From the IMG/VR virus record IMGVR_UViG_2874968258_000011: a DNA stretch of 31,126 nt. One strand, given 5' to 3'. This document shows, piece after piece, positions 765-30,635 of the stretch; the first letter of the stretch is position 1, and each line of letters opens with the position of its first letter. Under the pieces are notes generated by a model, which did no database searches, had not been told where the DNA came from, and saw only the letters and a program-made list of their open reading frames with translations. The DNA comes from a virus. Lineage: Duplodnaviria; Heunggongvirae; Uroviricota; Caudoviricetes. The translations under genes and the position numbers were made by a program.

Positions 765-1127
765 GGTGCATTCCTCACGATGTGCGAATAAAAAGCCCGG
801 GCATTGCGCCAGAGACATGAGCATCCGGCACCCCGGACAGGGCGCTATATGACCCCGGTAATGAATGCTCTGAACATCCCGTAATGAAAAATTGTGGGGA
901 TGCTATATACGTTCCGGTGGGAGTACTGGGCACTGAAATCCCCACCGGTCCCAGTCGTGAGCCTCTGTATGACTGCCCCCTGACAAGTCTGATGACTTTA
1001 TCACCGTCAGCTTCTCCCTGGTACGCAGCAATAATCAGCCCGCCAATGTCAGGGTCTCCCCATCTGTTGCAGACAGAGCTCGCCACGATTCTGTAAATAA
1101 TATCTTCTGTGGGGTAATGACTCCAAC

Positions 1128-1631
1128 TTATTGATAGTGTTTTATGTTCAGATAATGCCCGATGACTTTGTCATGCAGCTCCACCGATTTTGAGAACGAC
1201 AGCGACTTCCGTCCCAGCCGTGCCAGGTGCTGCCTCAGATTCAGGTTATGCCGCTCAATTCGCTGCGTATATCGCTTGCTGATTACGTGCAGCTTTCCCT
1301 TCAGGCGGGATTCATACAGCGGCCAGCCATCCGTCATCCATATCACCACGTCAAAGGGTGACAGCAGGCTCATAAGACGCCCCAGCGTCGCCATAGTGCG
1401 TTCACCGAATACGTGCGCAACAACCGTCTTCCGGAGACTGTCATACGCGTAAAACAGCCAGCGCTGGCGCGATTTAGCCCCGACATAGCCCCACTGTTCG
1501 TCCATTTCCGCGCAGACGATGACGTCACTGCCCGGCTGTATGCGCGAGGTTACCGACTGCGGCCTGAGTTTTTTAAGTGACGTAAAATCGTGTTGAGGCC
1601 AACGCCCATAATGCGTGCAGTTGCCCGGCAT
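1128..1631 (-). CDS. insB: IS1 InsB (expressed as InsAB' by -1 frameshift at A6C)
   Basis: 167-aa ORF overlapping insA; TTAAAAAACTC slippery motif. Confidence 0.9.
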
Positions 1632-1825
1632 CCAACGCCATTCATGGCCATATCAATGATTTTCTGGTGCGTACCGGGTTGAGAAGCGGTGTAAGTGAAC
1701 TGCAGTTGCCATGTTTTACGGCAGTGAGAGCAGAGATAGCGCTGATGTCCGGCAGTGCTTTTGCCGTTACGCACCACCCCGTCAGTAGCTGAACAGGAGG
1801 GACAGCTGATAGAAACAGAAGCCAC
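1550..1825 (-). CDS. insA: IS1 InsA
   Basis: 91-aa [25 protein letters not shown]…. Confidence 0.9.
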
Positions 1826-2265
1826 TGGAGCACCTCAAAAACACCATCATACACTAAATCAGTAAGTTGGCAGCATCACCCTTCTGTGGTTATATTTATT
1901 TTCACCCAGCCAGTCAGTCTGGATATGGGCCAGTAGCAGTAGCGGGTGTGATAAATGGGGCCGTTAATGCCGTAAAAAGTAAGGGATTTGGCTCTGTACC
2001 TCGGTTCTGTTGTCTCAGGGCGTGCATCAGTCCACCGGATGCTGAGCCCCCCTTCAAACCGTGTGTCGGGTATGATGATGTCGTAGGGGCCAGCAACGGA
2101 ATATTCACCTGGCAGCGCATTCCTTACCCAGGCCAGGAAATCACTCTTAGTGTCAAAACGGATAACATCTTCAGGCAGAAAAGCACACCCAAAGCCGAAT
2201 GCGCCGGGTATCGCCAGACGGCTGAGGTGTACTGGCAATAGCGGACACTACCATTTGTTCTTTTT

Positions 2266-9731: not shown

Positions 9732-9908
9732 AGCCTCACCTCCGCAAATAACGGATGGCGTAGTTTTACACTGAGAAATGAAAGGGATTTGAAAAGAAAA
9801 AAACGCAAAAGCGGGCGAAACGATATATACAGTAAGGAAAGCACTGAGGTAGCCTGAGTTTAACGGACACTCCTTCCTAAAATAGAATGGCATCAGAAGG
9901 AGCTAATA

Positions 9909-10211
9909 ATGAGCAGAAAAACCCAACGTTACTCTAAAGAGTTCAAAGCCGAAGCTGTCAGAACGGTTCCTGAAAATCAACTTTCGATCAGTGAAGGCGC
10001 TTCCCGATTATCTCTTCCTGAAGGCACTTTAGGACAATGGGTTACCGCCGCCAGAAAAGGGCTCGGTACTCCTGGTTCCCGCACGGTGGCTGAACTGGAA
10101 TCTGAAATTCTGCAACTGCGTAAGGCGTTAAATGAAGCTCGCCTTGAGCGAGATATATTAAAAAAAGCAACAGCGTATTTTGCACAGGAGTCGCTGAAAA
10201 ATACGCGTTAA
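9909..10211 (+). CDS. IS600 OrfA (P variant at residue 21)
   Basis: 100-aa ORF. Confidence 0.9.
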   Translation: MSRKTQRYSKEFKAEAVRTVPENQLSISEGASRLSLPEGTLGQWVTAARKGLGTPGSRTVAELESEILQLRKALNEARLERDILKKATAYFAQESLKNTR

Positions 10212-10302
10212 TCGAACAATGGCGACAACAATTTCCCATTGAAGCGATGTGTCAGGTATTTGGTGTATCCAGGAGCGGTTATTACAACTGGGTATGAAGT
10301 GG

Positions 10303-11471
<1,169 letters not shown>

Positions 11472-12542
11472 TGGAGCACCTGTGTTGTTCTGAGGTGAGC
11501 ATATCACCTCTGTTCAGGTGGCCAAATTCAGTGTGCCACTTCAGTACAGCATGAACCCTCAGACAGAAAACAAAGTGATGAGCGGCTAAAACTGGAGATT
11601 AAGGTGGCACATATCCGCACTCGCGAAACATATGGAACCCGGCGGCTCCAGACGGAGCTGGCAGAGAATGGCATCATCGTTGGTCGTGACCGACTGGCAC
11701 GTCTTCGTAAGGAGCTAAGGCTACGCTGTAAGCAGAAACGCAAGTTCAGAGCGACTACGAACTCGAACCACAATCTGCCAGTTGCGCCAAATCTGCTGAA
11801 CCAGACGTTCGCTCCTACAGCACCAAATCAGGTCTGGGTGGCGGACCTGACGTATGTTGCCACACAGGAGGGATGGTTGTACCTCGCTGGCATCAAAGAT
11901 GTTTATACGTGCGAAATTGTCGGCTACGCCATGGGAGAGCGCATGACAAAAGAGCTGACAGGTAAAGCCCTGTTTATGGCGCTCAGGAGCCAGCGCCCAC
12001 CTGCCGGGCTAATCCACCACTCTGATCGAGGTTCACAGTACTGCGCATACGATTACCGGGTCATACAGGAGCAGTCTGGTCTGAAAACATCAATGTCGCG
12101 TAAAGGTAACTGTTACGACAACGCTCCGATGGAAAGCTTCTGGGGAACGCTGAAAAATGAGAGCCTGAGCCACTATCGTTTTAATAACCGGGATGAAGCC
12201 ATCTCAGTAATACGGGAATACATTGAGATTTTCTACAATCGTCAGCGTCGTCACTCTCGTCTGGGGAATATCTCCCCGGCAGCCTTCAGGGAAAAATATC
12301 ATCAGATGGCTGCTTAAAAAAAGAACAAATGGTAGTGTCCGCTATTGCCAGTACACCTCACACTCTATCCAACAAACCACCCACAGTTAATCGGAATAAA
12401 AGCAGAGTGCTTATGAATGATCGCACGCCCGAAGGTTAGTATTTCTGCACAGCAATTTTGCAAAAAAAGGCGATCATTCATAACTTAAACGTCTTTCAGT
12501 CACTCCGGGATTTCCCATCATCGCAGACTGAAAGACTCTGAC

Positions 12543-12617
<75 letters not shown>

Positions 12618-12620
12618 ATA

Positions 12621-12696
<76 letters not shown>

Positions 12697-12698
12697 GC

Positions 12699-12775
12699 TG
12701 GCCCACCACCGAGGACTCGAACCTCGCACCGTCAACTTAGAAGGTTGATGCTCTATCCGGATGAGCTAGTGGTGG
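12699..12775 (-). tRNA. tRNA-Arg (anticodon UCU); unusual C1:G72
   Basis: Acceptor CCACCAC/GTGGTGG, anticodon loop CTTCTAA, T-arm CGAGGTTCGAGTCCTCG, CCA. Confidence 0.75.
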
Positions 12776-12776
12776 T

Positions 12777-12853
12777 TGGTGGCCCTTGCTGGACTTGAAC
12801 CAGCGACCTGGCGATTATGAGTCGCTCGCTCTGACCAACTGAGCTAAAGGGCC
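12777..12853 (-). tRNA. tRNA with CAU anticodon, ileX-like (Ile2/lysidine type; elongator Met not excluded)
   Basis: GGCCCTTTAGCTCAG…GACTCATAATCGCC…GGTTCAAGTCCAGCAAGGGCCACCA. Confidence 0.75.
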
Positions 12854-13597: not shown

Positions 13598-13884
13598 AAA
13601 TATCCCTCCTTTCTCCAGATTTCTTGTGTGCGAAAAACACCTTCTGCATGCATCAGGCGTAATTCTTCTTTGGTGTAATCGCTGGTTTTTACCCGCCCGT
13701 CGATTAAATCGTGGCACGAGCTACAGGCAATCGCTGCCTGCATATCGTGTGGCTTTATCGCTGTTCCGCACGTTCCCGCCAGTCGGTAATGCGCCAGCAC
13801 AGACGTTTCCGGATCGTGATTGCAGTAGCCAGGAATTCTGACGGTGCACATCTGCCCCCGCGCCGCTTTACGTAAATCCACCAT
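13594..13884 (-). CDS. ybcO: YbcO-like (DUF1364) putative nuclease
   Basis: 96-aa ORF MVDLRKAARGQMCTVRIPGYCN…ETSVLAH…; Cys-rich. Confidence 0.7.
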   Translation of the reverse strand: MVDLRKAARGQMCTVRIPGYCNHDPETSVLAHYRLAGTCGTAIKPHDMQAAIACSSCHDLIDGRVKTSDYTKEELRLMHAEGVFRTQEIWRKEGYL

Positions 13885-14483
13885 TACGCAAACTCCAGCA
13901 GCTGCGCGGCCACATTTTCGACTTGTTCCGGAGAGGAAAATTTACGGAACAGAATCCAGTTCCACAGCACATTCAGAACAGATTTATAAACCTGCTGAAA
14001 CTCGGTTTCGTCCATATTCGCAAAAGCGATGGATTTTGCCCGACGCCCGCGGCTACCGTCCGGATAAAAATGTTCGGTGTAAAATCCAGCCTGAATGGTT
14101 ACCCACTCGCGAAAAGCCTCAAACGACTTTAGCAATGCCGTATCCCGGGTTCTGCGTGTCGCAACTGTATTCAGATATTGCTCTGCGGCTTCGCTCAGAG
14201 CTGGCGTATGTTCCCGACCTACTGATTCGCACAGGTAATCAACGAAACCAGACAGCAGTTCTCGTTCGCGAGGCGTGATCGCCCCACCGACCGGAGTCCA
14301 GTAATCGAATCCCAGTTGCAGGAGTTTGAAAAAACGCTTGTGGAATGCGTAGTTACGCACACGCTTAAAGTCTGCGTGTATCCACTCACCTGTTTTGATT
14401 TGATGCAGAAAATCGCAACTCTCCGGCGTCGCCGGGAGAAGTAATCCGGAAGAGGTTTGTTTGATCAGTTGTATATGCGCCAT
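13884..14483 (-). CDS. Hypothetical prophage nin-region protein (DUF1367-like)
   Basis: 199-aa ORF with GGAGA RBS; translationally coupled to downstream ybcO-like gene. Confidence 0.55.
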   Translation of the reverse strand: MAHIQLIKQTSSGLLLPATPESCDFLHQIKTGEWIHADFKRVRNYAFHKRFFKLLQLGFDYWTPVGGAITPRERELLSGFVDYLCESVGREHTPALSEAAEQYLNTVATRRTRDTALLKSFEAFREWVTIQAGFYTEHFYPDGSRGRRAKSIAFANMDETEFQQVYKSVLNVLWNWILFRKFSSPEQVENVAAQLLEFA

Positions 14484-14554: not shown

Positions 14555-14767
14555 CTAACAGGATGCTCTGACTCGCAATTCATCCAGCAGTTTATCATTT
14601 CCCATAATGTCACTTACCCTCATCGGTAAAAAAATTGCCTTTCGACCATTACGATACATCATTGATTTTTTGGTTTCAGGGAAGTAATCCATTTCGACTA
14701 TAACTGACAGGTCATCACGACGTATGACTGCGTATTTACTACTAAATAGTTTCTTTATTTTTTCCAC
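14555..14767 (-). CDS. Hypothetical small ORF (GTG start), AT-rich
   Basis: 70-aa ORF only; no recognisable family. Confidence 0.2.
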   Translation of the reverse strand: MEKIKKLFSSKYAVIRRDDLSVIVEMDYFPETKKSMMYRNGRKAIFLPMRVSDIMGNDKLLDELRVRASC

Positions 14768-14873
14768 GATGCCTCCAGGTTTATAAGTACAAACGGTTAT
14801 ATCAACATAGAGACAAAAGGTGATGCTGCCAACTTACTGATTTAGTGTATGATGGTGTTTTTGAGGTGCTCCA

Positions 14874-15149
14874 GTGGCTTCTGTTTCTATCAGCTGTCCC
14901 TCCTGTTCAGCTACTGACGGGGTGGTGCGTAACGGCAAAAGCACTGCCGGACATCAGCGCTATCTCTGCTCTCACTGCCGTAAAACATGGCAACTGCAGT
15001 TCACTTACACCGCTTCCCAACCCGGTACGCACCAGAAAATCATTGATATGGCCATGAATGGCGTTGGATGCCGGGCAACTGCACGCATTATGGGCGTTGG
15101 CCTCAACACGATTTTACGTCACTTAAAAAACTCAGGCCGCAGTCGGTAA
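14874..15149 (+). CDS. insA: IS1 InsA
   Basis: 91-aa ORF. Confidence 0.9.
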
Positions 15150-15571
15150 CCTCGCGCATACAGCCGGGCAGTGACGTCATCGTCTGCGCGGAAATGGACG
15201 AACAGTGGGGCTATGTCGGGGCTAAATCGCGCCAGCGCTGGCTGTTTTACGCGTATGACAGTCTCCGGAAGACGGTTGTTGCGCACGTATTCGGTGAACG
15301 CACTATGGCGACGCTGGGGCGTCTTATGAGCCTGCTGTCACCCTTTGACGTGGTGATATGGATGACGGATGGCTGGCCGCTGTATGAATCCCGCCTGAAG
15401 GGAAAGCTGCACGTAATCAGCAAGCGATATACGCAGCGAATTGAGCGGCATAACCTGAATCTGAGGCAGCACCTGGCACGGCTGGGACGGAAGTCGCTGT
15501 CGTTCTCAAAATCGGTGGAGCTGCATGACAAAGTCATCGGGCATTATCTGAACATAAAACACTATCAATAA
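15068..15571 (+). CDS. insB: IS1 InsB
   Basis: 167-aa ORF. Confidence 0.9.
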
Positions 15572-15678
15572 GTTGGAGTCATTACCAAAAAAACCGCCGA
15601 AACGGGTTAAGTGCGGGTGCGTTGAGGATGCCTGACACATCAAAGGTGGCGGGAGATTACTCTCCCGCCTGGTCACTC

Positions 15679-15834
15679 TTACTCTCTAGATTCGTAGTCT
15701 ACGAAAACAGCGACCTCCGTCTGGCCGATTCGGATTCGTACCTCGCAGAGGTCTTTCCTCGTTACCAGTGCCGTCACAATGACGGTTAAACAGATGACGA
15801 TCAGGGCGATTAACATCGCCTTTTGCTGCTTCAT
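15679..15834 (-). CDS. hok: Hok/Gef-family type I toxin (51 aa)
   Basis: MKQQKAMLIALIVICLTVIVTALVTRKDLCEVRIRIGQTEVAVFVDYESRE closely resembles Gef/HokC; AGGAG RBS; ORF-track entry 15679..15891 is an upstream extension. Confidence 0.85.
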   Translation of the reverse strand: MKQQKAMLIALIVICLTVIVTALVTRKDLCEVRIRIGQTEVAVFVDYESRE

Positions 15835-16172
15835 AGCCTGCTTCTCCTTGCCTTTCGGCACGTAAGAGGCTAACCTACATTTGTGAGACATAGATTGGGC
15901 CTCAGATTAATGTTAAGCGTCTTGCAGGACGCGTAATGTTAACTGGGGCTTTTCTCTGTCTGCCTTACAGTGACATACCCGAGGCAGACAGCCTCAAGCA
16001 CCCGCAGCAATCTTACCGACACCGATAAGAAAACGCTATTTTTTATTGCCAGCACCATCTATCCAGGCTAGTTTATCTGCGTCAGAACGGCGCAATGCGC
16101 TCGCCTGAGATACGTTTACTTGCCATGGTAACAACAGGTAACGGCAATTGCTGTTTCTGTTTTGTTTCCTTC

Positions 16173-16203
16173 AAAAACCCCGGACCATCAATCCGGGGTT
16201 TTT
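16173..16203. terminator. Bidirectional intrinsic terminator (stem CCCCGGA/TCCGGGG, A5 on one side, T5 on the other)
   Basis: 7-bp GC-rich perfect stem flanked by A-run and T-run. Confidence 0.6.
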
Positions 16204-16208
16204 GTTTG

Positions 16209-16292
16209 TTAACCCCAACGGCAAATCGAATACACCACCAGCGCCACCGCCATCGCAATTCCTACCGTGGTGAATGCCTCAGGCCAGGTCAT
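16209..16292 (-). CDS. Candidate 27-aa hydrophobic peptide MTWPEAFTTVGIAMAVALVVYSICRWG
   Basis: ATG overlaps stop of DUF551-like gene (ATGA); AGGAGGTG located 6 nt upstream inside preceding gene; terminator immediately downstream; below ORF-track size cutoff. Confidence 0.4.
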   Translation of the reverse strand: MTWPEAFTTVGIAMAVALVVYSICRWG

Positions 16293-16654
16293 TGATTCAC
16301 CTCCTGCGGTGGTTCCGGTAGCGGCATCCAGTGAGTTGAGCTCTCTACTTCAACGCCGTCTTTGTCCACAAAAGCCATCTTATTCCCGCCACGAGTGGGG
16401 CAAAAAACCTTATCCCAGGAACCGGGGAATACATTCCCGAGATCATCGAGAAGAATCACATCGCAATATTCAGCAGGAACTGCATCACTACAGCTTATCC
16501 AGCCAGCCGGAGCTACCGGAGAGTTGCCAGCCTTACGCATGGCCATTTCCACGATTTCAACCATATCTCCTGGTGGAATTTTACAAAGTTGCCCAATACA
16601 TTTCTGCTGCCTGGCATATTCGAGAATGTGCTCCAGTTTGGTTCGATTAATCAT
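16289..16654 (-). CDS. DUF551-like prophage protein
   Basis: 121-aa ORF with C-terminal W…THWMPLPEPP-type motif. Confidence 0.55.
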   Translation of the reverse strand: MINRTKLEHILEYARQQKCIGQLCKIPPGDMVEIVEMAMRKAGNSPVAPAGWISCSDAVPAEYCDVILLDDLGNVFPGSWDKVFCPTRGGNKMAFVDKDGVEVESSTHWMPLPEPPQEVNQ

Positions 16655-17319
16655 TATTTATCTCCCTTAAGCATGGCAGCGCGGCAGGCGTTCCAGCCAT
16701 CAACATAATCAAACGTATTACTATCGTTTGGCCCGATTTCATCCGGCACTATCGGCTCTGGTTGGATAGTGACGTTGGCAAAGGCAGCACGCAAACCGGT
16801 TTTAATTTCTTCGATTTCATCAGAGCCAAGCGATGAATCTGACAGTGCGTGATGGAATGCGTAAGCCATGTCGTCGTTTACTGCAACCGGCACTGCCGGC
16901 GCTGCGTAAAGCGGTGTTATATCTGCCCGAAAATCACATGCTTTATGCAGTCGTACCCAACACTCAACTTCCGCTTTGTCAAAATATATAGCAGTGAACG
17001 TATTAGATTCCTGGTCAACTTGAGTAAACGTCACCTTCCACGCTACAGCTACGGCTTTCCATCCATCAGGTTGTCGCATTCGCGGGGCAGCATAAAGCTC
17101 ATGCATTCCATCAGGCAGCGAGTGACCCACATACTCACCGAACCCGTCAATACACATGCCCCCATCTTCAACAATGCATTCCGCTACAGGCTCTGCTTCC
17201 AGTGATGCCAGAGCGATAAGCGCCAGTTCACGAATTTCACCGCCGTCTATATCGTCAATATCATCGCGGCCAGAAATGTTAGCCAGCCATTGCAGTCGCT
17301 CTTTGGTAATAGTGGTCAT
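16654..17319 (-). CDS. Hypothetical prophage protein with duplicated LYAAP motif
   Basis: 221-aa acidic ORF; start overlaps HNH stop; stop overlaps DUF551 start. Confidence 0.55.
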   Translation of the reverse strand: MTTITKERLQWLANISGRDDIDDIDGGEIRELALIALASLEAEPVAECIVEDGGMCIDGFGEYVGHSLPDGMHELYAAPRMRQPDGWKAVAVAWKVTFTQVDQESNTFTAIYFDKAEVECWVRLHKACDFRADITPLYAAPAVPVAVNDDMAYAFHHALSDSSLGSDEIEEIKTGLRAAFANVTIQPEPIVPDEIGPNDSNTFDYVDGWNACRAAMLKGDK

Positions 17320-17681
17320 GCCGTAGCCCCTTCTTGATATTTTTCAAACCAGAACACAACCGGGTCAGATTTCATTTCAACCAATCCCATACGAACCAGC
17401 GCTTTGCCTTTCCCGGACGCAAGGAATTCACGACGACCATCACTGATAATTCGTCGATAATCTTCCAGGCTACTGCAATGCTTGTGCAGATTGCATGGGT
17501 GGCATGCTGGTACCATGTTGGATATATCGTCACGTTCCTGGTGAAGCATATTTCCATCAAAACGAATGACCGGTTTTACATGGTCTGCATGCCACTTTTC
17601 GCCAAGTTCGCAGCCGCAATAAGCGCAGCGACCACCGAACTTCATGCGCAGTTCTGCACGTTGTTTTTTCGTCAGTGCCAT
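17316..17681 (-). CDS. HNH endonuclease
   Basis: CAYCGCEL…WHADHVKP…CHPCNLHK zinc-finger/HNH motif; start at internal ATG with AAGGA RBS. Confidence 0.75.
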   Translation of the reverse strand: MALTKKQRAELRMKFGGRCAYCGCELGEKWHADHVKPVIRFDGNMLHQERDDISNMVPACHPCNLHKHCSSLEDYRRIISDGRREFLASGKGKALVRMGLVEMKSDPVVFWFEKYQEGATA

Positions 17682-17682
17682 A

Positions 17683-17901
17683 TCAGCTTTCCTTATACGG
17701 ATTAATTTTATTGTGCAGTGTGTTGAATGACGCCCATACCACGTCGTTATACAATTCAATAACTGGCTCAATTATTTTTCCGATTATCCAGACAAAAATT
17801 AGCGGGGATATCGGTGTCATCAACACGATAAACAGAATGAGAAACAGGAATTCTGTTGTTCTACTCTTTCGCGGATATTTTTTTCTAAATAATGTAACCA
17901 T
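17683..17901 (-). CDS. Hypothetical small membrane protein
   Basis: 72-aa ORF with hydrophobic segment FLFLILFIVLMTPISPLIFVWIIG; ends 2 nt before HNH start. Confidence 0.35.
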   Translation of the reverse strand: MVTLFRKKYPRKSRTTEFLFLILFIVLMTPISPLIFVWIIGKIIEPVIELYNDVVWASFNTLHNKINPYKES

Positions 17902-17993
17902 TCATTACCGCCCTTTCGAGCGGTCTCCTGATGATTTGAGGGTGCAGAAATCCCTCCGGTTAAGGATTAAATTTTTAACAGTGCTAAATTTAA

Positions 17994-18334
17994 TTATTCA
18001 GTTCTGGATTTTGTCGCCCTGCGTATCCGCGCTTTCGCGTTACGCTCAATCTGTATCAGCTTTTCTATATTTCTCCGCCTTTCCTGTTCCTCCTGGCGCA
18101 ATAGCCTTACATCATCTGCCAGTCTGGTTTCTCTTTTTGCCACAGAGAGCATCCAGTCAAACGGCTCCACAACCGCACCGCAGATTTTACAGCGGACCTG
18201 ACGCTCTTTTTCGTCAACCCGGACAGAGGCGTGATGGCAATATGGTCTTTCCGATGGTTCATAAAGAAAATTAACCTGATTACGTGGGTCATCCTCTTTT
18301 ACCGGAAATAAAACGATATTGCTTAACTCATCTT
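17994..18334 (-). pseudogene. 5'-truncated gene remnant (Cys/His then charged helical tail), cut by IS1 copy C
   Basis: Open frame …RPYCHHASVRVDEKERQVRCKICGAVVEPFDWMLSVAKRETRLADDVRLLRQEEQERRRN… continues without start codon into IS1 end. Confidence 0.35.
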
Positions 18335-18389
18335 GGTGATGCTGCCAACTTACTGATTTAGTGTATGATGGTGTTTTTGAGGTGCTCCA

Positions 18390-18665
18390 GTGGCTTCTGT
18401 TTCTATCAGCTGTCCCTCCTGTTCAGCTACTGACGGGGTGGTGCGTAACGGCAAAAGCACTGCCGGACATCAGCGCTATCTCTGCTCTCACTGCCGTAAA
18501 ACATGGCAACTGCAGTTCACTTACACCGCTTCTCAACCCGGTACGCACCAGAAAATCATTGATATGGCCATGAATGGCGTTGGATGCCGGGCAACTGCAC
18601 GCATTATGGGCGTTGGCCTCAACACGATTTTACGTCACTTAAAAAACTCAGGCCGCAGTCGGTAA
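18390..18665 (+). CDS. insA: IS1 InsA
   Basis: 91-aa ORF. Confidence 0.9.
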
Positions 18666-19087
18666 CCTCGCGCATACAGCCGGGCAGTGACGTCATCGTC
18701 TGCGCGGAAATGGACGAACAGTGGGGCTATGTCGGGGCTAAATCGCGCCAGCGCTGGCTGTTTTACGCGTATGACAGTCTCCGGAAGACGGTTGTTGCGC
18801 ACGTATTCGGTGAACGCACTATGGCGACGCTGGGGCGTCTTATGAGCCTGCTGTCACCCTTTGACGTGGTGATATGGATGACGGATGGCTGGCCGCTGTA
18901 TGAATCCCGCCTGAAGGGAAAGCTGCACGTAATCAGCAAGCGATATACGCAGCGAATTGAGCGGCATAACCTGAATCTGAGGCAGCACCTGGCACGGCTG
19001 GGACGGAAGTCGCTGTCGTTCTCAAAATCGGTGGAGCTGCATGACAAAGTCATCGGGCATTATCTGAACATAAAACACTATCAATAA
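18584..19087 (+). CDS. insB: IS1 InsB
   Basis: 167-aa ORF. Confidence 0.9.
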
Positions 19088-19164
19088 GTTGGAGTCATTA
19101 TGAGGTAGCCTGAGTTTAACGGACACTCCTTCCTGAAATAGAATGGCATCAGAAGGAGCTAATA

Positions 19165-19467
19165 ATGAGCAGAAAAACCCAACGTTACTCTAAAGAGTTC
19201 AAAGCCGAAGCTGTCAGAACGGTTCCTGAAAATCAACTTTCGATCAGTGAAGGCGCTTCCCGATTATCTCTTCCTGAAGGCACTTTAGGACAATGGGTTA
19301 CCGCCGCCAGAAAAGGGCTCGGTACTCCTGGTTCCCGCACGGTGGCTGAACTGGAATCTGAAATTCTGCAACTGCGTAAGGCGTTAAATGAAGCTCGCCT
19401 TGAGCGAGATATATTAAAAAAAGCAACAGCGTATTTTGCACAGGAGTCGCTGAAAAATACGCGTTAA
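19165..19467 (+). CDS. IS600 OrfA (P variant)
   Basis: 100-aa ORF. Confidence 0.9.
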   Translation: MSRKTQRYSKEFKAEAVRTVPENQLSISEGASRLSLPEGTLGQWVTAARKGLGTPGSRTVAELESEILQLRKALNEARLERDILKKATAYFAQESLKNTR

Positions 19468-19502
19468 TCGAACAATGGCGACAACAATTTCCCATTGAAG
19501 CG

Positions 19503-20321
19503 ATGTGTCAGGTATTTGGTGTATCCAGGAGCGGTTATTACAACTGGGTACAGCATGAACCCTCAGACAGAAAACAAAGTGATGAGCGGCTAAAACTGGA
19601 GATTAAGGTGGCACATATCCGCACTCGCGAAACATATGGAACCCGGCGGCTCCAGACGGAGCTGGCAGAGAATGGCATCATCGTTGGTCGTGACCGACTG
19701 GCACGTCTTCGTAAGGAGCTAAGGCTACGCTGTAAGCAGAAACGCAAGTTCAGAGCGACTACGAACTCGAACCACAATCTGCCAGTTGCGCCAAATCTGC
19801 TGAACCAGACGTTCGCTCCTACAGCACCAAATCAGGTCTGGGTGGCGGACCTGACGTATGTTGCCACACAGGAGGGATGGTTGTACCTCGCTGGCATCAA
19901 AGATGTTTATACGTGCGAAATTGTCGGCTACGCCATGGGAGAGCGCATGACAAAAGAGCTGACAGGTAAAGCCCTGTTTATGGCGCTCAGGAGCCAGCGC
20001 CCACCTGCCGGGCTAATCCACCACTCTGATCGAGGTTCACAGTACTGCGCATACGATTACCGGGTCATACAGGAGCAGTCTGGTCTGAAAACATCAATGT
20101 CGCGTAAAGGTAACTGTTACGACAACGCTCCGATGGAAAGCTTCTGGGGAACGCTGAAAAATGAGAGCCTGAGCCACTATCGTTTTAATAACCGGGATGA
20201 AGCCATCTCAGTAATACGGGAATACATTGAGATTTTCTACAATCGTCAGCGTCGTCACTCTCGTCTGGGGAATATCTCCCCGGCAGCCTTCAGGGAAAAA
20301 TATCATCAGATGGCTGCTTAA
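19503..20321 (+). CDS. IS600 OrfB
   Basis: 272-aa ORF. Confidence 0.9.
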   Translation: MCQVFGVSRSGYYNWVQHEPSDRKQSDERLKLEIKVAHIRTRETYGTRRLQTELAENGIIVGRDRLARLRKELRLRCKQKRKFRATTNSNHNLPVAPNLLNQTFAPTAPNQVWVADLTYVATQEGWLYLAGIKDVYTCEIVGYAMGERMTKELTGKALFMALRSQRPPAGLIHHSDRGSQYCAYDYRVIQEQSGLKTSMSRKGNCYDNAPMESFWGTLKNESLSHYRFNNRDEAISVIREYIEIFYNRQRRHSRLGNISPAAFREKYHQMAA

Positions 20322-20364
20322 AAAAAGAACAAATGGTAGTGTCCGCTATTGCCAGTACACCTCA

Positions 20365-20734
20365 TAGCTTCGCTCTTCCGGCACTCGCGACAGATTATAT
20401 TCAGGCGCCTGTCGTAGCGGCGTATTTCTCCGTCTGGTAATGACCAGATAAGGTCAGGATCAACCACAACCGGTTTCTTCACCTTTACCCTCGATAGCTT
20501 TTTGCGGGCGTTTTGCCAGTCTTTATGAGCCTGTTCAGAGGGAAATACCCCGTAGCCAGAATTATATACATCACCACTTGCGACCAGTTCCATGCATAAG
20601 CGACCGACAGACGCACGACTGATACCTGTTTCATCTGACAACTGCCGAATCGTGACCCGACCGTCCTGATGCACGAGTTCCACAATTCGCGTCTTCAGTT
20701 CTTCCCGCTGTTCGGGAGTAAAAGGTTTCGCCAT
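20365..20734 (-). CDS. Hypothetical prophage protein; 3' end runs into IS600, probably C-terminally truncated
   Basis: ORF 20318..20734 with strong AGGAGG RBS; last ~14 codons are IS600-derived. Confidence 0.45.
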
Positions 20735-21495: not shown

Positions 21496-22033
21496 GGTCT
21501 GTTACCCCCTGAAGCCTGGCGGGATCGCACTGTCCGGCAACGAGACGGTGTTAACCTGTCGGAGCAACGTCTCAGGCCGAACACCTTTCGGCGCGAACAG
21601 ACCCTGGTATTCATTGGCGATGCTGTGTCGAATCACCTGCTCAGGTGTAAAACCCTGCTGACGGAATTTTTCCAGTTCCCGTATCGCCCCGTTAGCGCCC
21701 TGCTCCGTTCGAATCGGTTTTCGCAATGCCTGCCTGAACTGGACCCACTCATGCCAGAGTGTTTCTGGCAACCAGTCGGGCAGATCAACTGACAACGGGT
21801 CAAATTTTTTCTGGCGAACAGCCCCACCGATAACCAGAATTCCCTGCTCGGTGTGCCTTGCGATATCACTGCGCCGCAAGACACATATCCCGGTTTCAAC
21901 AGCACCGATTTTGAGCAGTGATTTCTGTCGCGGAGAATTTCGGTCAAGCTCGCTCCCACACCGGACACCGTTCCTGTCAGTCACGACGATTGAGGTGTAC
22001 TGGCAATAGCGGACACTACCATTTGTTCTTTTT

Positions 22034-22852
22034 TTAAGCAGCCATCTGATGATATTTTTCCCTGAAGGCTGCCGGGGAGATATTCCCCAGACGAGAGTGA
22101 CGACGCTGACGATTGTAGAAAATCTCAATGTATTCCCGTATTACTGAGATGGCTTCATCCCGGTTATTAAAACGATAGTGGCTCAGGCTCTCATTTTTCA
22201 GCGTTCCCCAGAAGCTTTCCATCGGAGCGTTGTCGTAACAGTTACCTTTACGCGACATTGATGTTTTCAGACCAGACTGCTCCTGTATGACCCGGTAATC
22301 GTATGCGCAGTACTGTGAACCTCGATCAGAGTGGTGGATTAGCCCGGCAGGTGGGCGCTGGCTCCTGAGCGCCATAAACAGGGCTTTACCTGTCAGCTCT
22401 TTTGTCATGCGCTCTCCCATGGCGTAGCCGACAATTTCGCACGTATAAACATCTTTGATGCCAGCGAGGTACAACCATCCCTCCTGTGTGGCAACATACG
22501 TCAGGTCCGCCACCCAGACCTGATTTGGTGCTGTAGGAGCGAACGTCTGGTTCAGCAGATTTGGCGCAACTGGCAGATTGTGGTTCGAGTTCGTAGTCGC
22601 TCTGAACTTGCGTTTCTGCTTACAGCGTAGCCTTAGCTCCTTACGAAGACGTGCCAGTCGGTCACGACCAACGATGATGCCATTCTCTGCCAGCTCCGTC
22701 TGGAGCCGCCGGGTTCCATATGTTTCGCGAGTGCGGATATGTGCCACCTTAATCTCCAGTTTTAGCCGCTCATCACTTTGTTTTCTGTCTGAGGGTTCAT
22801 GCTGTACCCAGTTGTAATAACCGCTCCTGGATACACCAAATACCTGACACAT
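22034..22852 (-). CDS. IS600 OrfB
   Basis: 272-aa ORF. Confidence 0.9.
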   Translation of the reverse strand: MCQVFGVSRSGYYNWVQHEPSDRKQSDERLKLEIKVAHIRTRETYGTRRLQTELAENGIIVGRDRLARLRKELRLRCKQKRKFRATTNSNHNLPVAPNLLNQTFAPTAPNQVWVADLTYVATQEGWLYLAGIKDVYTCEIVGYAMGERMTKELTGKALFMALRSQRPPAGLIHHSDRGSQYCAYDYRVIQEQSGLKTSMSRKGNCYDNAPMESFWGTLKNESLSHYRFNNRDEAISVIREYIEIFYNRQRRHSRLGNISPAAFREKYHQMAA

Positions 22853-22887
22853 CGCTTCAATGGGAAATTGTTGTCGCCATTGTTCGA

Positions 22888-23190
22888 TTAACGCGTATTT
22901 TTCAGCGACTCCTGTGCAAAATACGCTGTTGCTTTTTTTAATATATCTCGCTCAAGGCGAGCTTCATTTAACGCCTTACGCAGTTGCAGAATTTCAGATT
23001 CCAGTTCAGCCACCGTGCGGGAACCAGGAGTACCGAGCCCTTTTCTGGCGGCGGTAACCCATTGTCCTAAAGTGCCTTCAGGAAGAGATAATCGGGAAGC
23101 GCCTTCACTGATCGAAAGTTGATTTTCAGGAACCGTTCTGACAGCTTCGGCTTTGAACTCTTTAGAGTAACGTTGGGTTTTTCTGCTCAT
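22888..23190 (-). CDS. IS600 OrfA (P variant)
   Basis: 100-aa ORF. Confidence 0.9.
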   Translation of the reverse strand: MSRKTQRYSKEFKAEAVRTVPENQLSISEGASRLSLPEGTLGQWVTAARKGLGTPGSRTVAELESEILQLRKALNEARLERDILKKATAYFAQESLKNTR

Positions 23191-23980
23191 TATTAGCTCC
23201 TTCTGATGCCATTCTATTTCAGGAAGGAGTGTCCGTTAAACTCAGGCTACCTCAGATATCAATCCGCCCTCCGCAACCGTCACCACGCTCTGGCACCGGA
23301 TACTCACGACAGACATCCAGGCCAGCAGCCTGCAACGCAACCACCGCAGAATTACAAAATTCCGCTGCAGTACCGCCAGATAATCTCCCCTCAAGCACTC
23401 CAGCCACAAAATCCCGAAACTCCCTTCCGGAAGGGAAGGGTTTGGGATGGGTTAGATCTGTTTTTAGATCTTTATCTGTATCTTTATTAGTTGCCTTTGT
23501 GTTGGCATCATGTTCGAACATCACTCCAACATCTGTTTGAACACCTGTTAAATTTCTCTCTTGTTTTGTTTGAACATCTGCTTCCTTTCTGCTTCTTCTG
23601 GCCTGAACAGATGCTTTTCCTGCGGCTGATTTTTTGGTTAATTTTTCTCTGACAGATGCCAGATCTTCCTCAATCCGAAGATGCATCCATTCGTCGCCGT
23701 TATCACAAAAAAACTCCCGCAAGGATGGTTCAACATCAACCCATCGCTCGTTAGTCAGACGGGCAATTTTTGCCAACCTGTTTTTGGGTATTGGCTTTCC
23801 TGTTTGCCAGTAATTGAACATCAGCAACAAATACGCGCCGTGCTCCTCTGCTGACAAATGCATGGTGTCAGCCAGGTAATCAGCTATGTACAGTTGCATG
23901 TATGGTAATGCGGCCATAATTGCCCCGTATGATGCTGCCCGGTTGCTTAGAATAAGCACAAACAGCATGGAAACTTTTGC

Positions 23981-29240: not shown

Positions 29241-29435
29241 AAAAAAGAAAGCCTGCACACTGTGCAGGCCTGAGTGAAGAACCTGGGACATTTATTCATC
29301 ACTCGCAGTAATTTTAATCTGAGTTGAGGTTAAAAAACAATGAGCACCGATAAACAAGTTTACCCACTGTATGAGGTAGCCTGAGTTTAACGGACACTCC
29401 TTCCTGAAATAGAATGGCATCAGAAGGAGCTAATA

Positions 29436-29738
29436 ATGAGCAGAAAAACCCAACGTTACTCTAAAGAGTTCAAAGCCGAAGCTGTCAGAACGGTTCCTGA
29501 AAATCAACTTTCGATCAGTGAAGGCGCTTCCCGATTATCTCTTCCTGAAGGCACTTTAGGACAATGGGTTACCGCCGCCAGAAAAGGGCTCGGTACTCCT
29601 GGTTCCCGCACGGTGGCTGAACTGGAATCTGAAATTCTGCAACTGCGTAAGGCGTTAAATGAAGCTCGCCTTGAGCGAGATATATTAAAAAAAGCAACAG
29701 CGTATTTTGCACAGGAGTCGCTGAAAAATACGCGTTAA
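29436..29738 (+). CDS. IS600 OrfA (P variant)
   Basis: 100-aa ORF. Confidence 0.9.
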   Translation: MSRKTQRYSKEFKAEAVRTVPENQLSISEGASRLSLPEGTLGQWVTAARKGLGTPGSRTVAELESEILQLRKALNEARLERDILKKATAYFAQESLKNTR

Positions 29739-29773
29739 TCGAACAATGGCGACAACAATTTCCCATTGAAGCG

Positions 29774-30592
29774 ATGTGTCAGGTATTTGGTGTATCCAGG
29801 AGCGGTTATTACAACTGGGTACAGCATGAACCCTCAGACAGAAAACAAAGTGATGAGCGGCTAAAACTGGAGATTAAGGTGGCACATATCCGCACTCGCG
29901 AAACATATGGAACCCGGCGGCTCCAGACGGAGCTGGCAGAGAATGGCATCATCGTTGGTCGTGACCGACTGGCACGTCTTCGTAAGGAGCTAAGGCTACG
30001 CTGTAAGCAGAAACGCAAGTTCAGAGCGACTACGAACTCGAACCACAATCTGCCAGTTGCGCCAAATCTGCTGAACCAGACGTTCACTCCTACAGCACCA
30101 AATCAGGTCTGGGTGGCGGACCTGACGTATGTTGCCACACAGGAGGGATGGTTGTACCTCGCTGGCATCAAAGATGTTTATACGTGCGAAATTGTCGGCT
30201 ACGCCATGGGAGAGCGCATGACAAAAGAGCTGACAGGTAAAGCCCTGTTTATGGCGCTCAGGAGCCAGCGCCCACCTGCCGGGCTAATCCACCACTCTGA
30301 TCGAGGTTCACAGTACTGCGCATACGATTACCGGGTCATACAGGAGCAGTCTGGTCTGAAAACATCAATGTCGCGTAAAGGTAACTGTTACGACAACGCT
30401 CCGATGGAAAGCTTCTGGGGAACGCTGAAAAATGAGAGCCTGAGCCACTATCGTTTTAATAACCGGGATGAAGCCATCTCAGTAATACGGGAATACATTG
30501 AGATTTTCTACAATCGTCAGCGTCGTCACTCTCGTCTGGGGAATATCTCCCCGGCAGCCTTCAGGGAAAAATATCATCAGATGGCTGCTTAA
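29774..30592 (+). CDS. IS600 OrfB
   Basis: 272-aa ORF. Confidence 0.9.
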   Translation: MCQVFGVSRSGYYNWVQHEPSDRKQSDERLKLEIKVAHIRTRETYGTRRLQTELAENGIIVGRDRLARLRKELRLRCKQKRKFRATTNSNHNLPVAPNLLNQTFTPTAPNQVWVADLTYVATQEGWLYLAGIKDVYTCEIVGYAMGERMTKELTGKALFMALRSQRPPAGLIHHSDRGSQYCAYDYRVIQEQSGLKTSMSRKGNCYDNAPMESFWGTLKNESLSHYRFNNRDEAISVIREYIEIFYNRQRRHSRLGNISPAAFREKYHQMAA

Positions 30593-30635
30593 AAAAAGAA
30601 CAAATGGTAGTGTCCGCTATTGCCAGTACACCTCA

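Follow-up and report, generated by a model that had tools for sequence, protein, structure and literature searches.

Independent IS1 insertions as the probable origin of an IS1-flanked hok/sok-HNH segment in a Shigella sonnei prophage, and loss of the segment between the two copies

Genes and insertion sequences at the locus

The window, by which we mean the whole stretch of 31,126 nucleotides that was analysed, is part of the chromosome of Shigella sonnei, with 100% identity to CP032523.1 over 20.4 kb and 99.99% identity to HE616528.1; it represents a degraded Rac-like lambdoid prophage, full of insertion sequences (ISs). Most of the studies citing HE616528 that were consulted deal with S. 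sonnei. Three copies of IS1, six of IS600 and one of IS911 were counted in the 31 kb of the window. The features discussed here are collected in Table 1.

Table 1. Position, strand and characteristics of the features of the window considered in this study.
Feature	Position	Strand	Characteristics
IS1-A (comparison copy)	1115-1882	-	intact 9-bp duplication CTTCTGTGG
DUF1367 gene	13884-14483	-	left prophage neighbour; collinear with IS-free relatives
70-aa gene	14555-14767	-	left prophage neighbour; collinear with IS-free relatives
IS1-B	14819-15586	+	complete 768-bp IS1; insA/insB' intact
Block	15587-18334	- (all genes)	2748 bp; Rac-like lambdoid prophage segment, very probably native
Segment with sok match	15587-16003	-	Rfam sok and predicted mRNA end pairing
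mok/hok	15679-15891	-	mok 70 aa; Pfam HOK_GEF 1.7e-21
hok reading frame	15679-15834	-	51 aa; overlaps mok
DUF551 gene	16289-16654	-	121 aa; Pfam PF04448 3.4e-19
221-aa hypothetical protein	16654-17319	-	two LYAAP motifs
HNH endonuclease gene	17316-17681	-	121 aa; Pfam PF01844 2.2e-06; so annotated in relatives
DUF4014 gene	17683-17901	-	72-aa hydrophobic protein; Pfam PF13198 1.3e-25
118-aa gene	17994-18334	-	first 6 codons (MEIKPE) missing; interrupted by IS1-C
IS1-C	18335-19100	+	766 bp; right inverted repeat without terminal CC
IS600	19101-20364	+	100% identity to elements annotated 'IS3-like element IS600'
DUF977 gene	20365-20734	-	Pfam DUF977 4.7e-30

IS1 is an insertion sequence of 768 bp with terminal inverted repeats of about 23 bp and the genes insA and insB', and a simple insertion of it produces a target duplication of about 9 bp. 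The length, the inverted repeats and both genes are found in the window copies, with reading frames of 91 aa for InsA and 167 aa for the insB' ORF; the IS1 genes in the S. sonnei loci match Pfam Zn_ribbon_InsA and DDE_Tnp_IS1, and in relatives the element is annotated as IS1A or IS1B. Two of the copies, IS1-B and IS1-C, are both plus-oriented and lie 2748 bp apart, around the block of about 2.7 kb to which a preliminary description of this DNA had drawn attention. The gene content listed there (hok, a DUF551 gene, a protein with LYAAP repeats, an HNH endonuclease, a small membrane protein and a 5'-truncated gene) is confirmed by Pfam and Rfam matches and by the translations. IS1-B and IS1-C constitute 766-bp repeats with a single mismatch (nt 199, which leaves InsA unchanged), corresponding to 99.9% identity, and such repeats cannot have arisen by chance.

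The replication genes of the prophage lie on one side of the block and its Q antiterminator on the other. The 'HNH operon' of the preliminary description is correct as to its genes, which however form only a co-directional string of the lambdoid 'nin' region. The 221-aa protein has no match in a Pfam search, and its counterpart in E. coli prophages is a hypothetical protein of the same length (WP_000208061.1). Loss of the first codons of the 118-aa gene is recognized by comparing its translation with that of the E. coli relative L001; strain 53G retains this 5' end, immediately past IS1-C. On the other side of IS600, the DUF977 gene lacks about 52 nt at its 3' end (as judged from the corresponding junction in L001 and L002), and its open frame runs into IS600 to give an ORF of 138 aa (20318-20734). 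The DUF977-IS600 fusion protein was used as the marker for retrieving S. sonnei genomes, among which L003 designates the window, L004 strain 53G, L005 CP061367 and L008 CP179997. The last of these is S. sonnei 391324; CP179990 is S. sonnei 830292.

The sequence hallmarks of a hok/sok system are present in the block: a Hok/Gef peptide, an overlapping mok, a sok region and a predicted tac/fbi pairing. The Rfam sok family (RF01794) matches positions 15829-16003 with 118 bits (gathering score, 59), and in the minimum-free-energy fold of the hok mRNA nt 1-12 pair with nt 377-389, as expected of tac, the 5' element of hok mRNAs, and fbi, their 3' element. Judging from these sequence features, the locus is intact. 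The chromosomal hok loci of K-12, reportedly described by Pedersen and Gerdes in 1999, are said to have an IS just downstream, which would inactivate the locus. The window locus resembles them in its 51-aa Hok with overlapping mok, its Rfam sok match, the predicted pairing of the two mRNA ends, its location in a lambdoid prophage and the IS immediately 3' of the locus. It differs from them in that IS1-B, which abuts the T-run of the hok terminator with 7 of the 8 T retained, leaves the predicted 3' pairing element intact, and in the substitution T36I, which was identified by comparing the translation of Hok with that of the nearest E. coli allele. On the effect of the residue that corresponds to T36, which is D37 in R1 Hok, a literature search yielded nothing usable, and the same holds for a search on Tn9.

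The block in IS1-free relatives and the history of each IS1 copy

The block is found at the same prophage position, and with no IS1, in E. coli FDAARGOS_944 (99.7% identity, 7 differences) and in E. coli VL40 (99.3% identity). Both of its flanks are collinear with the prophages of these two strains: one flank shares with them a DUF1133 Q-like gene, YbcO, DUF1367 and the 70-aa gene, and the other flank shares DUF977 and a DnaC-like gene. Since the same neighbours occur in the same gene order in E. coli genomes free of IS1, the block appears to be the prophage's own DNA, still in place.

The flanks of the three IS1 copies bear out the earlier observation that neither IS1-B nor IS1-C has a target duplication in the window, while IS1-A has one of 9 bp. 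For IS1-C, which is bordered by ACTCATCTT on the left and on the right runs straight into IS600, whose left end is at 19101, the state that preceded this junction is preserved in sister strains. In 53G, L007, L013 and L015 the element is complete and carries a 10-bp duplication AACTCATCTT on both sides, which in 53G matches the inner flank of IS1-C; in all four, 139 bp of native sequence lie between it and IS600, which is inserted at the 3' end of the DUF977 gene with a duplication of 3 bp (TAG). Because it has its own 10-bp duplication within the 118-aa gene in 53G and in the other strains, IS1-C is recognized as a simple solo insertion. From the window and from L006 exactly 141 bp are absent, namely the last 2 bp of IS1-C and the 139 bp up to IS600.

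In the sequence of events that we propose, IS1-C would have entered the 5' end of the 118-aa gene, creating the 10-bp duplication, and IS600 would have inserted at a distance of 139 bp, in the 3' end of the DUF977 gene, creating one of 3 bp; in the lineage of the window a later 141-bp deletion, with an endpoint exactly at the left terminus of IS600, would have taken these 139 bp, the two terminal base pairs of IS1-C and the copy of its duplication on the right side. As this deletion stops at the terminus of IS600 and not at that of IS1, it is IS600 rather than IS1 that is implicated. A stretch of about 940 bp (ead/Ea22 and DUF4406 genes) that is missing with respect to VL40 was also considered as a deletion at the IS1-C/IS600 junction, and rejected: comparison with FDAARGOS_944 and 53G indicates that the S. 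sonnei prophage never had these genes, and that the true lineage-specific loss is 141 bp.

IS1-B has both ends intact (GGTGATGCTGCC...GGAGTCATTACC), with GAGACAAAA as left and AAAAAAACC as right flank, and no target duplication of it was found in any genome compared. It occupies a site from which a spacer of about 133 bp is gone: both flanks are adjacent in 131 E. coli genomes, and the listed matches in which they are side by side have about 130-135 bp of extra DNA between them. This spacer, which is AT-rich and follows the hok terminator, would have received IS1-B and lost the approximately 133 bp, either by an IS1 adjacent deletion or by recombination of two nearby IS1 copies. A pre-deletion intermediate was not found among the genomes compared, so that the history of IS1-B is read from the missing spacer only. 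Adjacent deletions, and single copies left with no duplication after recombination between two ISs, are classical behaviour of IS1, and IS1-B, with its intact ends, no duplication and the conserved spacer missing, looks like such a remnant; the deletion on the IS1-C side, which ends at the terminus of IS600, is unlike an IS1 adjacent deletion. The enzymatic routes of both small deletions are presumptive.

Taken together, these observations make it very probable that two IS1 copies inserted independently in an old prophage, and that the block between them is native and in its original place: the solo duplication of IS1-C and the missing spacer at IS1-B point to independent insertions, with duplications erased by small IS-associated deletions. 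Both insertions would be older than the most recent ancestor shared by these S. sonnei strains. An origin of IS1-B and IS1-C from one intramolecular replicative IS1 event was rejected, as such events yield deletions or inversions and not a retained segment between direct copies, and also in view of the private nucleotide difference of IS1-B and the duplication that belongs to IS1-C. The suggestion, made from the window, that the segment was left by an IS1-mediated rearrangement stands loosely, in the sense that small IS-associated rearrangements took place at both copies, around a block that is itself native.

Other readings of the IS1 pair

We have weighed three other readings against that of independent insertions. 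According to the first, which we regard as very unlikely, the two IS1 copies are the joints of a large IS1 x IS1 translocation or inversion, and the block is a relocated fragment of another prophage. Such an origin would agree with the lack of a duplication at either copy in the window, with the many IS-mediated inversions and deletions of the same region in S. sonnei genomes, and with a shift of identity near IS1-B, from 99.7% for the block on its right to about 98% to the E. coli relatives (L001) in the last 500 bp or so on its left, and to 91-95% farther left. This leftward fall identifies a prophage mosaic near IS1-B, and leaves some room for a putative recombination joint close to it; however, the drop starts within the DUF1367 gene, some 500 bp left of IS1-B, and not at the IS1. 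Moreover, each IS1 copy has on either side exactly the gene order of IS-free E. coli prophages, the losses are small (133 and 141 bp) and local, and IS1-C has a clean duplication in 53G.

Even less credible is that the arrangement is a composite IS1 transposon like Tn9, which imported the hok/HNH block or can move it as a unit. Tn9 consists of two direct IS1 copies flanking cat, and the likeness is evident: here too there are direct IS1 repeats, apparently functional, around a passenger of a few kb, and in strains of the 53G type the four IS1 ends are all intact. The geometry of a composite transposon noted in the preliminary description is real, but a composite transposon is not supported. 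Its presence at this prophage position in relatives without the IS1 copies is what the preliminary description had named as refuting its reading. Unlike that of Tn9, the passenger is native, as the IS1-free relatives demonstrate; each IS1 has its own insertion history, documented for IS1-C by the duplication in 53G; the outer flanks, GAGACAAAA and AACTCATCT (in 53G), differ from each other, with no common duplication; and in the window one of the outer ends, that of IS1-C, is joined to IS600 and short of its last 2 bp. There is also no second location known for it. Neither the 5,426 E. coli genomes searched nor the best 5,000 plasmid matches include a record that contains the unit IS1-block-IS1 at a coverage of at least 80%; the proposed mobilisation of the hok module finds no support. 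The S. sonnei Mok/Hok allele always occurs within the same block (10 of 10 places among the matches listed). An exact-match scan for the inner junction between IS1-B and hok, in one genome per species, gave no match, a result that carries no information, since there was apparently no S. sonnei among these genomes.

Two kinds of partial match were examined and rejected. Plasmid records that cover 44% of the IS1-block-IS1 query do not represent IS1-hok-IS1 units: on an IncHI1B plasmid, one IS1 is located close to a hokD that is unrelated, and both IS1 copies of the query match that one IS1. In E. coli Br_190_kylling, where the coverage is 62%, a related prophage region was the target of a separate insertion of one IS1, and the structure is different.

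The S. sonnei sample comprises a few dozen assemblies, and genomes outside it may carry rare transposed copies of the unit. In strains of the 53G type both IS1 copies are structurally intact, so that transposition as a unit is physically conceivable there; we nevertheless see only a very slim chance that the IS1-hok-HNH-IS1 arrangement of these strains is a latent Tn9-like transposon, which could occasionally carry a working hok/sok to, for example, pINV. In a genome saturated with ISs, a missing duplication beside one of them argues only weakly for a composite transposon, and the question is quickly decided once IS-free relatives and sister strains are compared.

Finally, collapse or misjoining of IS1 repeats in the assembly has a negligible probability: short-read assemblies do break at IS1 repeats, and of 1,411 index blocks with the hok allele of S. 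sonnei, 1,308 have it on a contig of only 2-5 kb, but many S. sonnei chromosomes that were finished independently of one another show identical junctions (L003, L004, L006, L007, L013-L022).

Loss of the block between the IS1 copies

The observable effect of the IS1 pair is deletion of the block. In two chromosomes, CP061367 and CP179997, there is a single IS1 and the block is absent; the left flank of this IS1, ...GAGACAAAA, is that of IS1-B, and its right flank, AACTCATCTTCTGG..., is that of IS1-C. A single IS1 with the left flank of one copy and the right flank of the other indicates that the block was deleted by IS1 x IS1 recombination. Near-identical direct repeats and a natural single-repeat product, the features of a deletion-prone segment, are both present. 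Homologous recombination between direct repeats 2.7 kb apart would remove the block together with one IS1, in a process that presumably depends on RecA.

Losses of IS-flanked segments in Shigella, for example of the pathogenicity island of pINV, likewise involve two near-identical direct IS copies, and here too there is a natural single-IS product in an IS-saturated S. sonnei host. Unlike that island, the block belongs to a chromosomal prophage, of which it is a small part, and is not known to play any role in virulence. The arrangement is ordinary genome decay of a known kind, and not a new mobile element. Disruption, deletion and rearrangement driven by ISs are dominant forces in Shigella genomes (PMC7373316), and genome decay driven by ISs in Shigella is also dealt with in PMC5629016. 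The locus is a clear local example of this erosion, in which insertions are followed by IS-adjacent deletions and the repeats then remove the intervening DNA; its importance beyond bookkeeping is slight.

Viable strains without the block exist, an observation that says nothing on whether the hok/sok locus is active. These strains represent a possible test of killing upon loss of a chromosomal prophage hok/sok, with the T36I form of Hok. Most short-read assemblies of S. sonnei have the block as an orphan contig, so that scoring whether it is present could also provide a minor lineage marker.

Insertion sequences of the window and the S. sonnei genomes compared

The window is very rich in insertion sequences, with three copies of IS1 (IS1-A, IS1-B and IS1-C) and six copies of a 1264-bp element recognized in a repeat scan; the latter is IS600, with 100% identity to elements annotated 'IS3-like element IS600'. 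The preliminary description of IS1-B and IS1-C as two directly oriented copies bracketing a gene block was accurate with respect to coordinates, orientation, gene content and the lack of a duplication in their flanks; unlike these two, IS1-A does have its target duplication. The insA and insB' frames are intact in both IS1-B and IS1-C, which differ from each other by a single internal base (position 199) that leaves InsA unaffected. IS1-B lies between GAGACAAAA and AAAAAAACC; IS1-C has ACTCATCTT on its left, and its right end is directly abutted by the left end of an IS600 (TGAGGTAGCC...). The block between them measures 2748 bp, and all its genes are on the minus strand.

IS1 copies of the window and genes of the block between IS1-B and IS1-C
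Feature	Position	Strand	Remarks
IS1-A	1115-1882	-	duplication CTTCTGTGG
IS1-B	14819-15586	+	768 bp; start GGTGATGCTGCC..., end ...GGAGTCATTACC
mok/hok	in block	-	Pfam HOK_GEF; Rfam sok match, 118 bits
DUF551 gene	in block	-	
221-aa protein gene	in block	-	two LYAAP motifs; no Pfam match
HNH gene	in block	-	
DUF4014 gene	in block	-	
118-aa gene	in block	-	without its first six codons
IS1-C	18335-19100	+	end ...GGAGTCATTA, last two bases missing

The frame of the DUF977 gene runs on into the adjoining IS600, giving a junction-specific product of 138 aa, and S. sonnei chromosomes were retrieved by exact match to this protein. CP032523.1 is 100% identical to the window over 20.4 kb, and HE616528.1 (strain 53G) is 99.99% identical; most of the citing studies looked at for the latter record concern S. 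sonnei. CP179997 is S. sonnei 391324 (genotype 1.5) and CP179990 is S. sonnei 830292 (genotype 2.3).

Elsewhere in the window, one IS600 copy (9843-12361) is split by a nested 1249-bp IS911 (10295-11543; 99.9% identity to annotated IS911), and another (21991-23254) interrupts a YdaU-type (DUF1376) replication gene. The latter copy is missing from 53G and several other S. sonnei, in which the gene is intact (399 aa); a 3-bp alignment overlap at this site is in keeping with simple insertion and a duplication of 3 bp.

Native position of the block

The block is the prophage's own DNA in its native position, the stretch that runs from the replication genes to the Q antiterminator, because it has the same neighbours, in collinear order, in E. 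coli prophages with no IS1 there. The whole block occurs in 2 of 5,426 complete E. coli genomes, FDAARGOS_944 (99.7% identity, 7 differences) and VL40 (99.3%), whose lambdoid prophages share, from the Q side, the order DUF1133 (Q-like), DUF1364/YbcO, DUF1367, a 70-aa gene, hok, DUF551, the 221-aa gene, HNH, DUF4014, the 118-aa gene, other genes, DUF977, a DnaC-like ATPase, YdaU and YdaT; in neither genome was an IS1 found in this DUF1133-to-YdaT stretch. In the window the neighbours on both sides of the block are the same, and its flanks are collinear with those of the E. coli prophages. Among the genes further out in S. sonnei genomes are DicB, Rha, YdaT, YdaU-type DUF1376 and exonuclease VIII, the mark of a Rac-like prophage. 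Four prophage tRNA genes, Gly-TCC, Thr-TGT, Arg-TCT and one with a CAT anticodon (Met according to ARAGORN, Ile according to RefSeq), are clustered downstream of the Q-like gene (12543-12853); the E. coli relatives share this cluster.

On these comparisons the feature is best described as a pair of IS1 insertions that took place independently in a prophage undergoing decay. The suggestion that it was left after IS-mediated rearrangement holds only in so far as small IS-associated deletions erased the target duplications. A composite IS1 transposon, the other origin proposed, is contradicted by the presence of the block at the same prophage position without IS1 in FDAARGOS_944 and VL40, the very finding that the preliminary description had set as its refutation. 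At a coverage of at least 80%, the entire IS1-block-IS1 segment had no match in any of the 5,426 E. coli genomes, nor among the 5,000 best-scoring plasmid records, the limit of that search. The best partial matches were blocks without IS, or unrelated single IS1 near other hok genes. In all ten places shown, the Mok/Hok allele specific to S. sonnei lay within the block. The outer flanks of the IS1 pair do not match each other.

DDE transposases need the terminal bases of the IS for cleavage. IS1-C is without these bases at its outer end in the window; all ends are intact in 53G-type strains, where both IS1 copies are complete. Since the ends are intact there, low-level transposition of the unit may be structurally possible in these strains, with no sign of its occurrence.

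Insertion and deletion at IS1-C and IS1-B

In 53G, 830292 and others (loci L004, L007, L013, L015) IS1-C is complete (768 bp), with AACTCATCTT on both sides, versus one copy of the motif in the uninterrupted E. coli sequence (GCTTAACTCATCTTCTGG). This doubling marks IS1-C as a simple insertion, which entered the 118-aa gene at its 5' end and duplicated 10 bp there. Next in the same loci come 139 native bp, made up of the beginning of the 118-aa gene, a short spacer and DUF977's 3' end, and then IS600, which is bordered by TAG on both sides, versus one TAG in E. coli (GCTGCATAGCTTCG). The window and CP044191 are without exactly 141 bp, consisting of the terminal CC of IS1-C and the 139 bp, and the deletion endpoint is exactly the left terminus of IS600 (window 19100/19101; 11635-11775 in L004, the 53G locus). 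This later, lineage-specific deletion accounts for the missing duplication at IS1-C in the window; it could have arisen through IS600-end-mediated deletion or, alternatively, through entry of a second IS600 into the IS1 end followed by recombination between the two IS600. The deletion is polymorphic in S. sonnei, being present in CP032523 and CP044191 and absent from 53G, CP179990, CP061367 and CP179997, and could serve as a lineage marker.

In FDAARGOS_944 (L001, ~9810-11075) an unrelated IS3-family element, ISEc52, lies in the short spacer that separates the 118-aa gene from DUF977; this insertion is independent and ~60 bp from the IS600 site of S. sonnei. At least three IS have entered this small stretch (IS1, IS600, ISEc52). 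In a draft S. sonnei contig (FTYA01000070.1; L009, 5480-6500) IS1-C is cut to 648 bp and joined to a partial IS600, beyond which lies a chromosomal region with rpoE, rseABC and lepA; this represents either another rearrangement through IS or an assembly error.

Both junctions of IS1-B are identical in all S. sonnei genomes examined. When 600 bp from each side of IS1-B were joined and compared with the E. coli genomes, the two flanks were adjacent in 131 of them, with ~130-135 extra bp between them in the listed matches that have both side by side; a few genomes carry a larger insert. In FDAARGOS_944 and VL40 the extra bases form an AT-rich spacer that separates the hok terminator from the 70-aa gene; in the window this spacer is replaced by IS1-B, with both its ends intact. 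Most simply, the spacer would have been lost after IS1 had inserted, either by an IS1 adjacent deletion or by recombination of two IS1 copies close to each other; no intermediate state was found among the genomes compared. Identity to the E. coli relatives is ~98% over the 500 bp left of IS1-B and 91-95% further left. The drop starts inside the DUF1367 gene; it appears to be ordinary lambdoid mosaicism, with a boundary that is not at IS1-B.

Loss of the block and state of the hok locus

The visible consequence of the IS1 pair is recombinational loss of the DNA between its members. The block is absent from CP061367 and CP179997, in which a single IS1 is bounded on its left by the flank of IS1-B (...ACATAGAGACAAAA) and on its right by that of IS1-C (AACTCATCTTCTGG...), beyond which lie the 139 bp and IS600. 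Homologous recombination of the two direct repeats would be expected to leave exactly this product. Since both outer junctions occur in a Lineage 1 strain, the two insertions are older than the common ancestor of the lineages compared. Deletions between IS600 copies and an IS600-bounded inversion affect the same region in other S. sonnei and, like the loss of the block, agree with the documented role of IS elements as drivers of Shigella genome decay (PMC7373316). Events of this kind are already well known in Shigella. Changes to the prophage were seen in a set of S. sonnei genomes (L013, L016-L018, L020, L021; L015, L019): some are without its replication-gene half, the IS600 copies at 19101-20364 and 29371-30635 being merged into one, and two have an extra IS600 at ~14775 and an inverted Q-to-DUF1367 segment.

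The hok/sok locus looks structurally competent, because the hok frame (15679-15834) is intact, with one change (T36I) versus the allele of the closest E. coli prophages, the sok region matches Rfam well above threshold, nt 1-12 of the predicted 417-nt hok mRNA are paired with nt 377-389, the contact to be expected between its 5' (tac) and 3' (fbi) elements, and IS1-B adjoins the terminator T-run, of which 7 of 8 T are kept. Strains without the block are viable, which does not decide whether hok is active. Enrichment of hok in prophages has already been described (bioRxiv 10.1101/2025.08.07.668861). The T36I allele was found in 1,411 index blocks of the protein collection. Most of these are on contigs of 2-5 kb, as would fit assembly of the block into an orphan contig bounded by IS1 repeats.
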